A stretch of DNA of 4,719 nucleotides from a virus. Lineage: Duplodnaviria > Heunggongvirae > Uroviricota > Caudoviricetes. Shown here piece by piece: positions 281-4,719 of the stretch. Made by a program: the position numbers and the translations under genes. Numbering within the stretch: position 1 is the stretch's first letter; every line of letters starts with the position of its first letter. The DNA lies in IMG/VR virus record IMGVR_UViG_2660238209_000006; one strand, 5' to 3'. The notes below the pieces were generated by a model, which was not told the DNA's origin, did no database searches, and saw only the letters and a list, made by a program, of their open reading frames with translations.

Positions 281-1357
281 TCACCCCCTGAATCCCGGCG
301 GAATTTCGGTATCCGGTTCAGAAATATGATTCACACAACGCTGGTTGTTCGTGCCGCTTACCGGGAGCAACCAGGGGTTTTCAAAATTCCGGTCCGGCCC
401 AAAAAACGTCGTCGCTCGCTGAACAAATTCCGTTCCCGTTTTCCCGGTAGCCGCCAGGTATCTTGCGTAACGCCTCACACCATCCAGTATGGCCTCTGGT
501 GGCACCCCCTCGCGTAATCTGGCCTTCCAGGCACTGAAAGCGGATTTCTTCGGGTTTGCCCCAGCACGCAACGGGTACTCCCGCCAGACCTGTTCGAACA
601 CATCCGGATAATCCACTCGTCCCACAGACTGACCGGTGTTTTCCGGGACTACCCGATCGGCTTCCCGCTGAATGGCGGAATCGGCTTCAGGCTGCTGAAG
701 TTGGTGTGATTGCTCCTGCCTTGCGGTCATCACCTGCTGCACAGCGCCCGAATCGGCTTTCAGCGCATACGCTGAATCGGCTTCCGGTGTCGTGCCTGCT
801 GGCTGACCAGGATTGACGGTCTGAACATCCCCTGCCTGGTTCGTGGCGTTTTTTACGCCATGGACCATAGTGTTTTGATCTTCTTGATCTGTATCTTTAT
901 CTGTATCTTTATCTGTCGTGACTCGTCGTGACATGTGCGTGACATTTCGTGACTCGCCGTGACAATCGCCATTTTGTTCCCGCTTTCTTTCCCTCTCTCG
1001 CTGCGCCCTCTTGCGCTCTGCCGGAGATTTTGCGGTTTGCGAAATATTGCCGTTGTCCTCTTTCAGCACCTGGCGTTTTTCCCATCCAGTGATTAAATCA
1101 CCATCAAGTACCCGCCCCTGCATCGTCTGCAAAATTGAATCAATTACCTCTTCTGTCACGTCGAGCGCACTTGCCAAATCTTCTGTCGTGACATCAATGT
1201 GACCTCGCGTGACATTTCGTGACGCGCTCACCAGGAGGTGGATATACACTGCCATCACTGTTGCAATTGGCTGCCCTGACACCCTGGCAATTGTTCGCCA
1301 CTTAGGGTCATTTGGCATGTCATGCCATAATCTGAGCCAGGCGTTAGCCATACTCAC
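281..1357 (-). CDS. Phage replication initiation protein (YdaU / O-like replisome organiser), 358 aa
   Basis: Supplied ORF with RBS GAGG 5 nt upstream of the ATG at 1355-1357. It sits directly after the CII-like gene in the rightward early operon. Phased iteron-like repeats lie inside the coding sequence, as in lambda O. The next gene is coupled 6 nt downstream. The N-terminal PKWRTIARVSGQP...YIHLLVSAS motif resembles Rac YdaU-type proteins from memory. Confidence 0.8.
   Translation of the reverse strand: MSMANAWLRLWHDMPNDPKWRTIARVSGQPIATVMAVYIHLLVSASRNVTRGHIDVTTEDLASALDVTEEVIDSILQTMQGRVLDGDLITGWEKRQVLKEDNGNISQTAKSPAERKRAQRERERKREQNGDCHGESRNVTHMSRRVTTDKDTDKDTDQEDQNTMVHGVKNATNQAGDVQTVNPGQPAGTTPEADSAYALKADSGAVQQVMTARQEQSHQLQQPEADSAIQREADRVVPENTGQSVGRVDYPDVFEQVWREYPLRAGANPKKSAFSAWKARLREGVPPEAILDGVRRYARYLAATGKTGTEFVQRATTFFGPDRNFENPWLLPVSGTNNQRCVNHISEPDTEIPPGFRG
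889..963. repeat. Putative replication origin core: tandem 12-mer (CTGTATCTTTAT x2, 889-912) followed by five helically phased CGTGAC iterons
   Basis: Directly seen: CGTGAC begins at 917, 927, 938, 948 and 958, spaced 10-11 bp, immediately after an AT-rich tandem repeat. The array lies inside the initiator gene in the segment encoding ...SRNVTHMSRRVTTDKDTDKDTD. Confidence 0.5.
1155..1223. repeat. Second iteron-like cluster inside the initiator gene, including an exact 17-bp direct repeat of the ori core
   Basis: GCGTGACATTTCGTGAC occurs exactly at 937-953 and at 1207-1223, 270 bp apart and in frame; both copies encode SRNVT. CGTGAC or its partial form also begins at 1187, about 1198, 1208 and 1218, with an inverted copy GTCACG at 1155-1160. 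Confidence 0.4.
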
Positions 1358-1422: not shown

Positions 1423-1848
1423 TCAATGTACTGCCACAGCATTTCCTGCCGGGCCACCACGGTTCATCTGATTGAAACCGGCGATTGCCACTGCGACAAA
1501 ATCATCAGCGTCTCTCACCAGTCGCTCCCGCGTCTCCACCAGCTCCCGAAAATAAGCTGAACTGTGGCTGCGCATTCTGGCCACCAGCAAAGGTGGCATT
1601 GCCTTTTCGATCGCTGGTAACAACGCCTGAATTTTTTCAACTGCATCAGGGGTGTCTTTCTCTACCCAGCGGAAAATTTTCTGGGTATTGCGAGCCAGGG
1701 CTTCCGGATGGCTGTCGTCATACAGTTCAGGAAACGTCATACCCAACTCAAAATAAGCCTGGGTTATTCCAGCTGCTGGAACTTTTTCGCCATCAGGACG
1801 CGCCCAGGCATTCATCGCCATGCGGATGTGTTCATGCTTGATTTTCAT
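1423..1848 (-). CDS. YdaT-like / CII-like early regulatory protein, 141 aa
   Basis: Supplied ORF with RBS AGGAG 8 nt upstream of the ATG. Its start overlaps the 3' end of the Cro-like gene by 17 nt, indicating an operon. Position between cro-like and replication genes matches lambdoid cII / Rac ydaT. The MKIKHEHI start resembles the YdaT family from memory. Confidence 0.65.
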   Translation of the reverse strand: MKIKHEHIRMAMNAWARPDGEKVPAAGITQAYFELGMTFPELYDDSHPEALARNTQKIFRWVEKDTPDAVEKIQALLPAIEKAMPPLLVARMRSHSSAYFRELVETRERLVRDADDFVAVAIAGFNQMNRGGPAGNAVAVH

Positions 1849-2113
1849 GAATCAAGCTCCTAGTAAGTGGTTGTGTTAACGTTTTGGTATCTTCCAGCTC
1901 GGGCCAAATATTCATCCAATCAAAAGGCCTTAGTTGCTGACGTGTAACTTCACCATTACTGGCTCGCTCAATAAGGACACATAACGATGCCCCTAACATT
2001 TGACCTTTACTCAATGCCTTTCTTAGATAACCGATGCTAGTACCACACTCACATGCAAACATACGCTGTTCATCTGACGAAAGAGAATTGAGAAATATTC
2101 TTAATTCTTCCAT
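1832..2113 (-). CDS. Cro / YdaS-like helix-turn-helix regulator, 93 aa
   Basis: Supplied ORF with RBS AGGAG 5 nt upstream of the ATG at 2111-2113. It is divergent from the repressor gene across an operator-bearing intergenic region. The segment CGTSIGYLRKAL is HTH-like. Confidence 0.75.
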   Translation of the reverse strand: MEELRIFLNSLSSDEQRMFACECGTSIGYLRKALSKGQMLGASLCVLIERASNGEVTRQQLRPFDWMNIWPELEDTKTLTQPLTRSLIHENQA

Positions 2114-2177: not shown

Positions 2178-2220
2178 GTTTACCTTGCGGTAATCGCATC
2201 TATTATTTACCTATGGACAA
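2176..2220 (+). promoter_or_regulatory. Candidate pRM-type promoter giving a leaderless repressor mRNA, with a weak OR3-like site
   Basis: -10 TATTAT at 2201-2206 ends 6 nt before the repressor ATG at 2213, with only a weak -35 (TTTACC / TTGTTT around 2176-2184) and no Shine-Dalgarno. This is analogous to leaderless lambda cI from pRM. TACCTATGGACA (2208-2219) is a 3-mismatch operator-like site overlapping the start codon. Confidence 0.4.
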
Positions 2221-2632
2221 ATATGAATTTAGACGACAACAACTCATCAAAATTCGTGATGAGAAATGCGATGGTAAAGCGGTTAACGTGGCCAGAAAGA
2301 TCGGTCGCGAGCCTTCTTATGTATCAAGAATGTTGTACCCAGAGGGGAAAAAAGGAAAAAAACGGATCGCTGATGATATGGTGGAGATTATAGAAGAGTC
2401 CTTTGGGTTACCCCGGGGATGGATGGATGGTATCGTTTCATCATCAACGAACACAGCCTCCAATTATGAAACAAGGGTTCTAACGCCACGACAACGTATT
2501 TTTTTAGATCTCTTAGACGAACTGCCAGAAAGTGAAGCGGATAACTTATTAAAAACTCTTGAAGAGAAAAAACAGTATTACAATATGATCTACGAAGAAA
2601 TCCGTAAAAAGAAAGCACAAAACGCATCATAA
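2213..2632 (+). CDS. Prophage repressor (RacR / CI-like functional analogue), HTH N-terminus, 139 aa
   Basis: Open frame from 2171, but the first ATG is at 2213 directly behind a -10 element. The translation MDKYEFRRQQ...GKAVNVARKIGREPSYVSRML has an HTH-like segment. No obvious S24 peptidase Ser/Lys motifs were seen in the C-terminal half. It is divergent from the cro-like gene and flanked on both sides by the same palindromic operator motif. Confidence 0.75.
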   Translation: MDKYEFRRQQLIKIRDEKCDGKAVNVARKIGREPSYVSRMLYPEGKKGKKRIADDMVEIIEESFGLPRGWMDGIVSSSTNTASNYETRVLTPRQRIFLDLLDELPESEADNLLKTLEEKKQYYNMIYEEIRKKKAQNAS

Positions 2633-2711: not shown

Positions 2712-2897
2712 TCCTTCCTTTCATACCAACCCACCCCGTCCCACAGAACGCAGGGCAATACTTCGAGTTACCAGGCAGTGGTCAGGGGGTAAGTAGCCAG
2801 CCCGAGGCGTAAGAACATGACGGCAGGGTTCAACTTTAATAACTATGCAGCAGGTTTTTGTTCCGCTACCCCGGCGTTAAGGGGAAATGAGGTCAGC

Positions 2898-3050
2898 ATG
2901 GATACTATCGATCTTGGCAACAGCGAATCTCTGGTATGCGGCGTGTTTCCCAACCAGGACGGTACGTTTACCGCGATGACGTATACCAAAAGTAAAACGT
3001 TTAAAACCGAAGCTGGCGCGCATCGCTGGTTAGCAAGAAACTCCGACTGA
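2898..3050 (+). CDS. Small YdaF-like (DUF1391-like) protein, 50 aa; possible longer form starting at 2817
   Basis: ATG at 2898 is preceded by GAGG with a 5-nt spacer and translates as MDTIDLGNSESLVCGVFPNQDGTFTAMTYTKSKTFKTEAGAHRWLARNSD. The stop TGA (3048-3050) overlaps the next gene's ATG (3050-3052). Resemblance to Rac YdaF is from memory. The in-frame ATG at 2817 has a weaker RBS. Confidence 0.55.
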   Translation: MDTIDLGNSESLVCGVFPNQDGTFTAMTYTKSKTFKTEAGAHRWLARNSD

Positions 3051-3061
3051 TGAGGTTGACG

Positions 3062-3700
3062 ATGGAATTTAAAGATTTACCTCCTTCAATCCAGGAGATT
3101 GCAGCACACACACTTCGTCATCGTCTGAACGAACTTGAATTGGAATCGGTAACGAAAAAAGACACTGATAATATGGCTCGTAATGTGCGCGATGCGTTTA
3201 CCGGATTGTATTTCTGTGCGTCTATAAATAAACACGACTCAGAGAGTGTGGCAAATAAAATTGCAGAAACGACAGCGCAAAACATCAATACGAAACCAAC
3301 GGAAGAAGAAATTGATCAGTTTGCTCATGATGCTGGTTTAAAAAACAAGAAAGAAAAATCGCCATATGCGGGGAACATGTTTGTTTATGACAATCTCATC
3401 AGAATTCGTGGCGAAATTCCGGCGGAATACCTGGCAAGAGTCCATCAGGCATTGCTTAAAAATTTGGAAACAGAATTATTTGATGGCAACACTAACGGTT
3501 TCTTCATGGTATCAGGCCTTGATAAAGACTGGGATGCAGAAAAACGCTGGAATGTTGCTACATGGTTATTCAGTAACAGAGCCGCTGCACTGGAAGCTTC
3601 GGCATGTATTTGCGGCCTGTTCTTAACAGACCACAAATATAATCTGGATGTGTACAGTTATATTTACGCTGAACACGGTCCACTCTGGATTGACTGGTAA
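3062..3700 (+). CDS. Uncharacterised protein, about 212 aa (216 aa if started at 3050); no family recognised
   Basis: Long supplied ORF. ATG at 3062 has GAGG 6 nt upstream; the alternative ATG at 3050 overlaps the upstream stop (TGATG). No transmembrane stretch, P-loop or nuclease motif was recognised by eye. It is the second gene downstream of the OL-type operators. Confidence 0.7.
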   Translation: MEFKDLPPSIQEIAAHTLRHRLNELELESVTKKDTDNMARNVRDAFTGLYFCASINKHDSESVANKIAETTAQNINTKPTEEEIDQFAHDAGLKNKKEKSPYAGNMFVYDNLIRIRGEIPAEYLARVHQALLKNLETELFDGNTNGFFMVSGLDKDWDAEKRWNVATWLFSNRAAALEASACICGLFLTDHKYNLDVYSYIYAEHGPLWIDW

Positions 3701-3910
3701 TTATAAGGAAACACCAGCAGGGCCGCGGCGACCAACAGAACGATTAAAATCAATAATGCCATTATAAAGGACATTATTTAATTTATCGTCGAATGCTGAT
3801 TCTGTGAGCCTCAACTCTGAATGAGTTTTTAATAACCCTGATTGCCTGAGTTGATTTACCAGGCATTCAATCTGTTTTTCAATAAGCGGATTTCTTTTTT
3901 TGTTTGGCAT
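3701..3910 (-). CDS. Small basic hypothetical protein, 69 aa (73 aa from the upstream ATG at 3920-3922)
   Basis: Minus-strand ORF with a strong RBS GGAGGA 5 nt before the ATG at 3908-3910. Translation starts MPNKKRNPLIEKQIECLVNQLRQSG.... It sits in a visibly AT-rich island, and its stop codon (3701-3703) directly abuts the stop of the convergent 212-aa gene (3698-3700), forming TAATTA. Confidence 0.5.
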   Translation of the reverse strand: MPNKKRNPLIEKQIECLVNQLRQSGLLKTHSELRLTESAFDDKLNNVLYNGIIDFNRSVGRRGPAGVSL

Positions 3911-3922
3911 TTTATCCTCCAT

Positions 3923-4432
3923 TGAGGTTCTGGGTTAAAAATGGAGACCAACACGCTGTCACGTGTGGTCGTGCGCCGGACACGGATAAGAATCCGGTAC
4001 TGACAGTTTACTGAAAGGATATTTCCCTGAAAAGTCAGGGCATAACGCGAAAGCGTACGGCGAAGCTCTTTCCCTTAGAAGGCTTGTCGTTAGATTTCTT
4101 CGAACGTGCGCTTCCGGTTGTGGCACTCCGCGAAATGGCGCGGCGGTAAGTATGGCGGGGTTATTCCTTCCCCGTTGAGGACACCGGGTTGTCAGGTTGA
4201 CCATACGCTTAAGTGACAACCCCGCTGCAACGCCCTCTGTTATCAATTTTCTGGTGACGTTTGGCGGTATCAGTTTTACTCCGTGGCTGCTCTGCCGCCC
4301 TTTTTAAAGTGAATTTTGTGATGCGGTGAATGCGGCTAAGCGCACGCGGAACAGTTAAAACAAGCGGTCTTTTACGGGCGTAACGGGAATGCTCTGTATC
4401 CGGCGTTAATTGTTAACTGGTTAACGTCACCT
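3923..4432. other. GC-rich, hairpin-dense region with no convincing CDS; candidate structured RNA or decayed gene remnant
   Basis: No ORF with a plausible start or RBS; the 95-aa minus ORF is Arg/Pro-rich junk-like. Local hairpins: CCCTGA-AAAG-TCAGGG (4025-4040), ACGC-GAAA-GCGT (4045-4056), CCGCG-AAATGG-CGCGG (4128-4143), CGGGG-loop-CCCCG (4156-4174), and a 9-bp stem GGGTTGTCA / TGACAACCC (4186-4194 / 4214-4222). Confidence 0.25.
4186..4222. repeat. Perfect 9-bp inverted repeat with a 19-nt loop (GGGTTGTCA ... TGACAACCC)
   Basis: Directly seen. A perfect 9-bp inverted repeat at this spacing is unlikely by chance in about 500 bp. Function is unknown (RNA hairpin or protein-binding site). Confidence 0.5.
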
Positions 4433-4719
4433 TGAACCGCCCCGGGTTTCCTGGAGAGTGTTTTATCTGTGAACTCAGGCTGCCAGATCATCGTTTCCGA
4501 TGGAAGCATAATAAGCTTTTTCTGCTTCTGCCGGAGGAGTATGGCCCAGCCTTCCCAGCAATCGTCGATTGTTATACCAGTCCACCCACGTTAGTGTGGC
4601 CAGTTCCACTTCTGCACGGTTTTTCCAGCTCTTACGGTGTATTACCTCCGCTTTGTAAAGACCATTGATGCTCTCAGCCATCGCGTTGTCATACGAGTCG
4701 CCTGTACTCCCTGTTGATG
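4433..4719 (-). mobile_element. IS3-family insertion sequence (IS629 / IS1203-like), right terminus and 3' part, continuing beyond the window
   Basis: Terminal sequence TGAACCGCCCCGGGTTTCCTGGAGAG starting at 4433 matches IS629-type terminal inverted repeats from memory (TG terminus). An IS3-family OrfB C-terminus is encoded immediately inside it. Confidence 0.8.
4475..4719 (-). CDS. IS3-family transposase OrfB, C-terminal fragment (N-terminus lies outside the window)
   Basis: The minus-strand frame is open to the window edge: ...STGDSYDNAMAESINGLYKAEVIHRKSWKNRAEVELATLTWVDWYNNRRLLGRLGHTPPAEAEKAYYASIGNDDLAA, stop at 4475-4477. The DNAxAES...LK.E and WYNNRR(L)H motifs are typical of the IS3-family integrase C-terminus. 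The supplied 68-aa ORF is only the part after an internal Met. Confidence 0.85.
   Translation of the reverse strand, partial: STGSTGDSYDNAMAESINGLYKAEVIHRKSWKNRAEVELATLTWVDWYNNRRLLGRLGHTPPAEAEKAYYASIGNDDLAA

Follow-up and report, generated by a model that had tools for sequence, protein, structure and literature searches.

The window considered here is a stretch of 4,719 nucleotides (nt) from IMG/VR record IMGVR_UViG_2660238209_000006, a virus of the Caudoviricetes, and it corresponds to the immunity and early-left region of a lambdoid prophage of the Qin/Rac type in Escherichia coli. Within its early-left operon we studied a small open reading frame (ORF) of 69 amino acids (aa) on the minus strand, which meets a convergent plus-strand gene of 212 aa stop codon to stop codon. 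Its pattern of sequence conservation shows the small ORF to be a true accessory gene that codes for a protein in lambdoid prophages of this type, and the comparisons reported below identify it as one of the cargoes carried by a recurrent slot of reverse orientation, whose structured leader they have in common. The window is identical over 1.8 kb to the chromosomes of O111 and other Shiga toxin-producing E. coli (STEC), and 99.8% identical to O157:H7 strain EC4115 over the 501-nt stretch that was compared. The locus is present in about 597 of 5,426 complete E. coli genomes (about 11%), mostly those of enterohaemorrhagic E. coli (EHEC) and STEC. The genes and features of the window are as follows.

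3701-3910, minus strand: small ORF, 69 codons plus stop (MPNKKRNPLIEKQIECLVNQLRQSGLLKTHSELRLTESAFDDKLNNVLYNGIIDFNRSVGRRGPAGVSL)
3062-3700, plus strand: 212-aa gene
3062-3346, plus strand: N-terminal MEFKDLP domain of the 212-aa protein, residues 1-95 (phrog_1363, phrog_9419, phrog_6937 and phrog_33007 match residues 5-79 only)
3347-3700, plus strand: C-terminal 117-aa domain of the 212-aa protein, residues 96-212 (the C-domain)
3923-4248: conserved GC-rich spacer between the small ORF and DicF
4249-4300, plus strand: DicF small RNA (sRNA) and its terminator (RF00039, 75 bits, E 7.5e-16; terminator at 4283-4298)
2898-3050, plus strand: DUF1391 (YdfA/YdaF-like) gene, the first gene of the early-left operon
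2675-2711: perfect palindrome pair, operator-like
about 2214-2632, plus strand: repressor gene
1832-2113, minus strand: Cro/YdaS-like gene
1423-1848, minus strand: YdaT-like gene
281-1357, minus strand: DnaT/O-like gene
from about 4433: end of an IS3-family insertion element

The small ORF is open on the minus strand from an in-frame ATG at 3922 down to 3701, which gives 73 aa in the ORF list. We place its start at the ATG at 3910-3908, with the stop codon at 3703-3701 and a product of 69 aa. This start is backed by the annotation of the PGAP pipeline (69 aa), by the length of the phrog_4274 profile (69) and by the homology shared with other cargo genes, which ends after this ATG, while the upstream ATG at 3922, which overlaps the Shine-Dalgarno (SD) sequence, is probably not used. 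The SD sequence, GGAGGA at 3920-3915 on the minus strand, lies 4 nt (TAAA) from the ATG, or 5 nt if counted from its GGAGG core. A preliminary description of this DNA, made from the letters of the window, had reported a 69-aa ORF on the opposite strand with a near-ideal ribosome-binding site and a 5-nt spacer. The ORF is borne out, its outer coordinate of 3922 being the upstream in-frame ATG, and the ribosome-binding site was essentially right. The touching stop codons that it described can be read directly in TAATTA at 3698-3703, where TAA (3698-3700) ends the 212-aa gene and TTA (3701-3703) is the reverse complement of the TAA that ends the small ORF. GC content is 37.1% in the small ORF, 41.2% in the 212-aa gene, 52.5% in the spacer and 47.5% in the whole window. 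The small ORF had been called markedly AT-rich compared with its neighbours, and this holds against the spacer and the window, but it lies only 4 points below its convergent neighbour; the AT-rich island is formed by the two genes jointly, between flanks of 49-53% GC.

Evidence for a protein-coding gene

Open frames of about 70 codons are common in the window (many appear in the ORF list), and since such a frame is not significant by itself, the status of the small ORF as a gene rests on the ratio of nonsynonymous to synonymous substitution rates (dN/dS), on the conservation of the frame and on the shared leader. Variable sites among 22 distinct intact alleles fell at codon positions 1, 2 and 3 in the numbers 13, 14 and 25. 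For the two main E. coli alleles, dN/dS was 0.19-0.27 in the ORF's own frame, 0.34-0.6 in the codon-aligned antisense frame and 0.93-2.5 in the four other frames. The preliminary description had pointed to profile searches and to conservation of the frame as ways of checking the ORF, and both support it: the whole phrog_4274 profile aligns with it (E 1.4e-51, 173 bits; profile positions 1-69 of 69 against residues 5-73 of the 73-aa form), and the frame is kept in all 22 distinct intact alleles and in the Salmonella relatives, homologues of about 45% identity remaining open despite many synonymous changes.

A frame-disrupting variant, which the same description had named as evidence that would speak against a gene, does occur. 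The O157/O111-type allele alone carries an A7 homopolymer at 3894-3900 (minus strand, codons 3-6), and 8 of the 74 IMG/VR copies have A6 in its place, which shifts the frame. However, as six of these eight copies show further homopolymer indels in the same assemblies, the A6 alleles are probably for the most part sequencing errors.

The product is annotated by PGAP as the hypothetical protein WP_001133037.1, and the identical protein is found on at least 1000 contigs, including many EHEC and STEC genomes. Its family is narrow: 1.84 billion representatives were searched exhaustively with HMMER and then a profile search was made, and the members came from E. coli, E. albertii and Salmonella only, were 61-80 aa long and went down to 41-55% identity, the level of the Salmonella homologues. 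A scan of genome contigs found no relative, a tblastn search of 50,697 phage GenBank records gave no match to the small protein or to the C-domain protein, and the literature yielded nothing on WP_001133037 or Ybl81.

In a confident AlphaFold2 model of the small protein (pLDDT 83, 19 sequences), residues 8-24 and 37-61 are predicted to be helical and are joined by a linker of 12 residues, and the chain finishes in a disordered tail with GRRGPAGVSL at its end. The protein has an isoelectric point (pI) of 9.7 and a grand average of hydropathicity (GRAVY) of -0.53, and is hydrophilic, with no hydrophobic segment. The Lys/Arg-rich N-terminus to which the preliminary description drew attention is correct for this allele (MPNKKRNP) but is not a conserved segment: other alleles begin with MPNKPIHP, MPNRPIHP or MPTKPVHP, and it is missing from the forms of 64 aa in Salmonella. 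The GRRGPAG tail is kept only in the clades that have the C-domain, a suggestive pattern (two clades versus two) which hints that it may be an interaction motif.

Searches for known relatives of this protein were negative in several collections. It had no Pfam match at E<=0.1 and nothing in NCBIfam; profile searches of the PDB gave no match for the small-protein family or the partner family, and a Foldseek search with the model against PDB and BFVD returned nothing with E<1. The small protein, the 212-aa protein and a 220-aa Salmonella partner matched no PADLOC-DB 2.0 component at E<=1; a 294-aa Salmonella partner gave generic helix-turn-helix matches only, and the Salmonella homologue in locus L079 a single marginal match (WH_III-A, E 0.027). 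We rejected an inhibitor of the KilR/DicB/Kil type: neither Pfam nor NCBIfam gave a match, the small gene does not share the orientation of the early-left operon, and relatives have dicB and kilR as distinct genes further downstream. SieB was likewise rejected by homology, the protein having 69 aa, no Pfam family at the above threshold, the negative GRAVY value and a soluble two-helix model. Homology to K-12 YdfC and to a 61-aa cargo family beginning MSDK was tested and not found. The suggestion of a horizontally acquired moron in the form of a small toxin, regulator or kil-like protein thus survives as regards an accessory, moron-like gene in a horizontally exchanged slot; a toxin or kil-like function is not supported, since no KilR, SieB, DicB, Pfam, NCBIfam or PADLOC match and no hydrophobic segment was found.

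Another ORF of 36 aa (MSFIMALLILIVLLVAAALLVFPYNYQSIQSGPCSA, 3664-3774, minus strand) covers the 3′ end of the small gene in a different frame, is strongly hydrophobic and is open in all alleles. We considered it as a type I-like toxin and rejected it, as its dN/dS exceeds 1 and it has no SD sequence; it is probably not a gene.

The reverse slot, its partner gene and the probable overlap of transcripts

On one side of the slot are the DUF1391 and MEFKDLP genes and on the other those for the sRNA and the cell-division inhibitor, all within the repressor-controlled early-left (dicBF/kil-type) operon. Among the matches listed (at least 120) of an exact-pattern scan of IMG/VR (loci L172-L291), the same leader precedes ORFs of at least nine unrelated families, 32-100 aa in length, and it is for this reason that we count the small ORF as one cargo of a recurrent slot. 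When the upstream regions are aligned, the homology across unrelated ORFs stops just past the ATG (...TCAATGGAGGATAAAATG). Cargo found elsewhere in the slot includes a 94-aa GhoS-like protein (L003), which scores 19.2 bits in Pfam (E 0.0012) where the family cut-off is 21, a 64-aa gene (L089 and L090) and gene L09 of phage phiP27; the leader matches listed comprise two Cys-rich zinc-ribbon-like proteins as well as the GhoS-like protein and the 64-aa family (WP_001295058). One Salmonella locus (L085, 4302-5627) has two tandem cargo slots, each with its own copy of the leader: in the first, a stand-alone C-domain ORF is convergent with the 69-aa gene, and in the second a MEFKDLP protein is convergent with the 64-aa cargo. 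At the slot position, Qin of K-12 has ydfC on the plus strand and Rac of K-12 has sieB, on the strand opposite to the early-left operon and with a 4-nt convergent overlap with the DUF1391 gene ydaF. In Rac (L091, 3906-4660) the kilS sRNA and kilR follow beyond sieB along the early-left operon, and sieB, kilS and kilR are the positional equivalents of the cargo, DicF and dicB. The elements that we recognised on the minus strand, from the predicted promoter to a hairpin beyond the stop codon, are listed here.

4005-4033, minus strand: predicted sigma-70 promoter, -35 TTTTCA (4033-4028), 17-nt spacer, -10 TAAACT (4010-4005)
3976-3997, minus strand: 5′ leader hairpin CCGGAU...GUCCGG, invariant in all leaders
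3947-3969, minus strand: middle leader hairpin, ACCACACG / CGUGUUGGU, 3 of 4 pairs changed on both sides
3917-3946, minus strand: predicted SD-sequestering hairpin, CUCCAU (3946-3941) with AUGGAG (3922-3917), from RNAalifold
3607-3639, minus strand: strong hairpin in the 3′ end of the 212-aa gene, 62-94 nt past the small-gene stop, folding free energy (dG) -19.0

Both arms of the SD hairpin are invariant in all ten leaders compared, while the loop differs in sequence and in length, and the SD sequence is paired over its first four bases. The middle stem stays paired in the Salmonella relatives despite the two-sided changes. Folding of the 92-nt leader gave a z-score of -2.74 on the minus strand, where none of 200 shuffles was as good, and of -0.91 on the plus strand. 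The invariant 5′ hairpin is probably at or near the 5′ end of the small-gene mRNA. A TAnAnn element is found 7-8 nt upstream of it across divergent leaders (n=10, Salmonella included), which in the Salmonella loci takes the form of an extended -10, TGnTATAxx. From these elements we infer that the small gene has its own promoter. The scan itself pointed to a promoter-like site at 3938-3909 (minus strand), which we rejected as the small-gene promoter because it overlaps the start codon.

The two parts of the convergent 212-aa gene differ in their distribution. The MEFKDLP domain belongs to the backbone early-left gene at the ydfB position, is common to prophages with other cargo and is mosaic with respect to the C-domain; the MEFKDLP ORF continues into whichever cassette is present, which gives it class-specific tails. 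The C-domain is under purifying selection (dN/dS 0.15-0.22) and acidic (pI 5.3); it belongs to no known family, and scans of Pfam, NCBIfam and PADLOC with the 212-aa protein and the Salmonella partners were uninformative. The C-domain was convergent with the small gene and abutting it in 83 of the 83 loci recovered through the small gene, and the small gene was present in 74 of the 78 informative loci recovered through the C-domain. The set includes Salmonella prophage-like elements in which identity is 44-49% for the small protein and 31-41% for the C-domain and the two genes overlap by 11-53 nt; there the C-domain is fused to unrelated N-termini (proteins of 220 aa, or of 294-307 aa with HTH_3) or stands alone (L085, 5211-5627). 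By these counts and comparisons, the small gene and the C-domain make up a tail-to-tail cassette in the E. coli clade and in one Salmonella clade. The preliminary description had thought of the small ORF as a possible partner of the 212-aa gene and had proposed their co-occurrence as the check. The counts agree with such a link, but it concerns the C-terminal 117-aa domain only, in two of the four deep clades, and the pairing is broken in the other two and in three further loci, which are taken up in the next section. Two Salmonella loci also carry copies of the C4 antisense RNA, one in L079 and three in L085, and L085 in addition has two isrK copies, all of them among Phage_ASH genes and 2-4 kb from the small gene.

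The DicF of K-12 is cut from a polycistronic transcript that begins upstream of ydfA (PMC10448788). The terminator scan found no terminator-like site on the plus strand between 3700 and 4283, and since DicF lies beyond the small ORF, the early transcript must be antisense to the whole of it. The small ORF is thus geometrically antisense to the DicF-producing early transcript, and it is a well-founded inference that the transcripts of the small gene and of the early operon overlap or collide, as had been claimed in the preliminary description. That description had also seen no room for terminators between the two genes, and indeed no site resembling an intrinsic terminator is present there on either strand.

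No canonical intrinsic terminator of its own was found for the small gene. The hairpin at 3639-3607 has a dG of -19.0 on the minus strand vs -13.6 on the plus strand, a difference that comes from G·U pairs, and a z-score of -7.5, and it is the strongest hairpin on the minus strand apart from the operator palindrome. A hairpin more stable on the small-gene strand was present 31-65 nt past the stop codon in all nine loci folded, and its equivalent in Salmonella locus L082 has a U-rich tail. It is therefore a candidate for the 3′ end, or a stabiliser, of the small-gene mRNA, and its position suggests that this mRNA ends within the 3′ end of the convergent gene. A plus-strand hairpin with a T-rich tail at 3831-3880, within the small ORF, was considered as an attenuator and rejected, as synonymous changes in Salmonella L085 disrupt it.

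The rest of the window yielded some further observations. Palindromes (TACCCATGGGTA) at 2675-2711 and at about 2140-2200 flank the repressor gene and have the look of oL/oR-type operators; the pair at 2675-2711, followed by T6 on the minus strand, also resembles an intrinsic terminator. The protein at the repressor position (2214-2632, plus strand) has no Pfam helix-turn-helix match, matches phrog_5736 and resembles DicA only weakly, in its C-terminal part (NF007257; at E 3e-5 it falls far short of the cut-off), and EC4115 has a different repressor of the LexA family there. In EC4115, dicB comes next after DicF. The IS3-family element at 4433-4719, which we take to be IS629-like and which includes the C-terminus of a transposase (4475-4681, minus strand), lies between DicF and the position that dicB has in EC4115, and for this reason dicB may be separated from the operon in the prophage of the window. 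The uninterrupted run of 128 T at positions 1-128 is probably an artefact of masking or assembly, not biology.

Proposed expression and competing explanations

We consider it reasonably probable that the small ORF is a reverse-slot accessory gene whose product, a small basic two-helix protein, is expressed reciprocally to the early operon; an accessory protein expressed in the lysogen is our best guess. In the proposed scheme, the prophage repressor would keep the plus-strand early promoter off, and the small gene would be transcribed from its own promoter into an mRNA that would overlap the 3′ end of the 212-aa gene by some 60-95 nt and stop at or near the hairpin at 3639-3607. Once the early promoter is derepressed, the plus-strand transcript would cross the entire small ORF to yield DicF. 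Because this transcript would collide and base-pair with that of the small gene, the small protein on one hand, and the 212-aa protein and DicF on the other, would be expressed reciprocally. In the lysogen, the small protein would probably act as a modulator or an exclusion-type factor. Where the cassette is present, its target may be the acidic C-domain protein, contacted through the conserved GRRGPAG tail, and a functional link between the two proteins is plausible.

Several observations weigh against this scheme. The predicted promoter agrees with the consensus at 8 of 12 positions, which is below the threshold of the scan, and the hairpin downstream of the gene has no U tract in E. coli. 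Conservation of the leader could in part serve the plus-strand precursor of DicF. No fold, family or defence-system match (Pfam, NCBIfam, PADLOC, PDB, BFVD) offers a handle on function. Three loci (L160, L164 and L171) keep an intact 215-aa partner while the small gene is internally deleted, and the deepest clades of the small-protein family, P0040 (in L292) and P0046 (in L293), both have a different leader and no C-domain. Because of the three deleted loci and the two deep clades, the pairing of the small gene with the C-domain is not obligatory in either direction. The P0040 and P0046 clades occupy the same reverse slot in Rac-like prophages, with an N-antiterminator gene as convergent neighbour in the case of L293. 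As to the deletion itself (about 2850-3000 in the three loci), about 55 codons are gone, the leader is fused to the last 45 nt or so, and a 211-aa reverse-strand gene comes next.

The two clades without a C-domain would fit a small protein that works alone, for example as a modulator directed at the host or at other phages, with the C-domain linked to it only physically, in a cassette that would recombine as one unit, and the convergence having no regulatory role. At least eight other cargo ORFs share the leader, most of them with no obvious partner domain, and the run of the MEFKDLP ORF into any cassette, with its class-specific tails, points in the same direction. We give this explanation an appreciable but minor share of our belief. 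It does not readily account for a tail-to-tail pair (from 0-12 nt apart to an overlap of 53 nt) that persists down to the identities of 44-49% and 31-41% noted above, is kept in different prophage backbones and in three N-terminal contexts of the C-domain, beyond the usual linkage in mosaic phages, nor for a GRRGPAG tail that is conserved only where the C-domain occurs. Closer partnership is assumed if the C-domain is a toxic effector produced on induction and the small basic protein its constitutive neutraliser, as in toxin-antitoxin or toxin-immunity systems. The opposite charges of the two proteins (pI 9.7 vs 5.3), the disordered conserved tail, the co-inheritance of a varying C-domain with its cognate small neighbour and the GhoS-like cargo in the slot of another prophage, albeit with a sub-cut-off Pfam match, agree with this idea. 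We nevertheless find it unlikely, as there are orphan C-domain loci and no toxin signature; type II toxin-antitoxin genes form co-directional bicistronic operons with recognisable domains, whereas here the layout is convergent, Pfam and PADLOC give no match, and L160, L164 and L171 keep the 215-aa protein alone.

Position and orientation, which are those of sieB in Rac, would suggest by analogy a SieB-like superinfection-exclusion or abortive-infection factor, with which the prophage would oppose incoming phages. Typical accessory loci include genes that run antisense to the lytic genes of a prophage (PMC7067206), and sieB of P22 is under the control of an antisense RNA (PMC12197685). The slot, however, holds very different cargo, so that position alone is no guide to function, and a protein of 69 residues without a hydrophobic segment, with no similarity to SieB and no Pfam (E<=0.1) or PADLOC match, stands against a Rac sieB coding sequence (CDS) of 162 residues; this makes such a factor distinctly unlikely. 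An ORF that is not translated at all, open as a by-product of conservation at the RNA level (of the plus-strand DicF precursor or of a minus-strand antisense RNA), is highly improbable. The region does lie inside the DicF precursor transcript, open frames of 70 codons are not rare by chance, and the frame is broken in the A6 copies, but most of these copies point to sequencing error, purifying selection is specific to the frame, the distant homologues remain open through many synonymous changes, and a conserved SD sequence and ATG precede the ORF. Moreover, K-12 has ydfC on the plus strand at this place, and the sequence is thus not needed for DicF.

Returning to reciprocal expression as the explanation that we prefer, it could be taken further. 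The minus-strand leader might be a dedicated, hot-swappable expression platform within the dicBF/kil operon of Qin/Rac-type prophages for diverse small proteins of the lysogenic phase, each coupled inversely to the early operon by head-on transcription, and the 69-aa protein and the C-domain might form a two-protein switch, acting through the GRRGPAG tail, that controls exclusion, abortive infection or host takeover. We regard this extension as doubtful; in such a switch, one partner would belong to the lysogenic state and the other would appear on induction. The locus lies in the operon that makes DicF and DicB, regulators of cell division, and a reverse-strand gene within it means that the production of DicF and that of the small protein are physically opposed, which could affect the expression of DicF and DicB in pathogenic strains. 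The shared leader provides a sequence handle for finding many uncharacterised small proteins of the lysogenic phase, and the set of leaders with their cargo is tractable for the study of head-on transcriptional coupling in prophages.

Comparison with known systems

Two parts of this picture are already known, namely the gene family, catalogued as hypothetical, and the existence of reverse-oriented accessory genes, such as sieB, in the early regions of prophages. As far as our searches went, no earlier description was found of a leader with exchangeable cargo within the dicBF/kil operon, nor of the convergent cassette of the small gene and the C-domain. The small protein belongs to the same family as phrog_4274 and WP_001133037.1, for which the databases record only "unknown function".

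SieB is a membrane protein. The small gene resembles sieB of Rac in its slot, in its reverse orientation within the early-left operon, in its convergence with the neighbouring gene, which in Rac is ydaF, and in its place upstream of the sRNA and inhibitor genes, there kilS and kilR. Unlike it, the small gene encodes a predicted soluble, basic helical hairpin with no sequence relationship to SieB, and its proximal leader is different, only a distal block (about 4050-4130) being common to Rac and the window. The dicBF operon of Qin (ydfA-ydfB-ydfC-dicF-dicB) shares with the window a DicA/DicC-like switch, the DUF1391 gene, DicF (75 bits) and the ydfC-dicF spacer. In K-12, however, that operon has the plus-strand ydfC, with no SD-hairpin leader and no reverse cargo, whereas the operon transcript of the window must run antisense through a gene.

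As in morons, the GC content of the small gene is lower than that of its flanks, its orientation is opposite to theirs, it has its own translation signals, and exchange has taken place at sharp junctions at the gene boundaries. It departs from them in that its promoter and terminator are predicted only, in that it sits in an early and not a late operon behind a dedicated leader shared with other cargo, and in that it is, in this clade, part of a convergent two-gene cassette. In convergent cis-antisense pairs that overlap at their 3′ ends, such as the type I toxin-antitoxin loci of prophages, the genes are arranged tail to tail and their transcripts overlap at the 3′ ends. Here each partner encodes a protein, and there is no small hydrophobic toxin among the two; the likeness is in the tail-to-tail units, which at this locus include a strand-specific hairpin inside the coding end of the partner.

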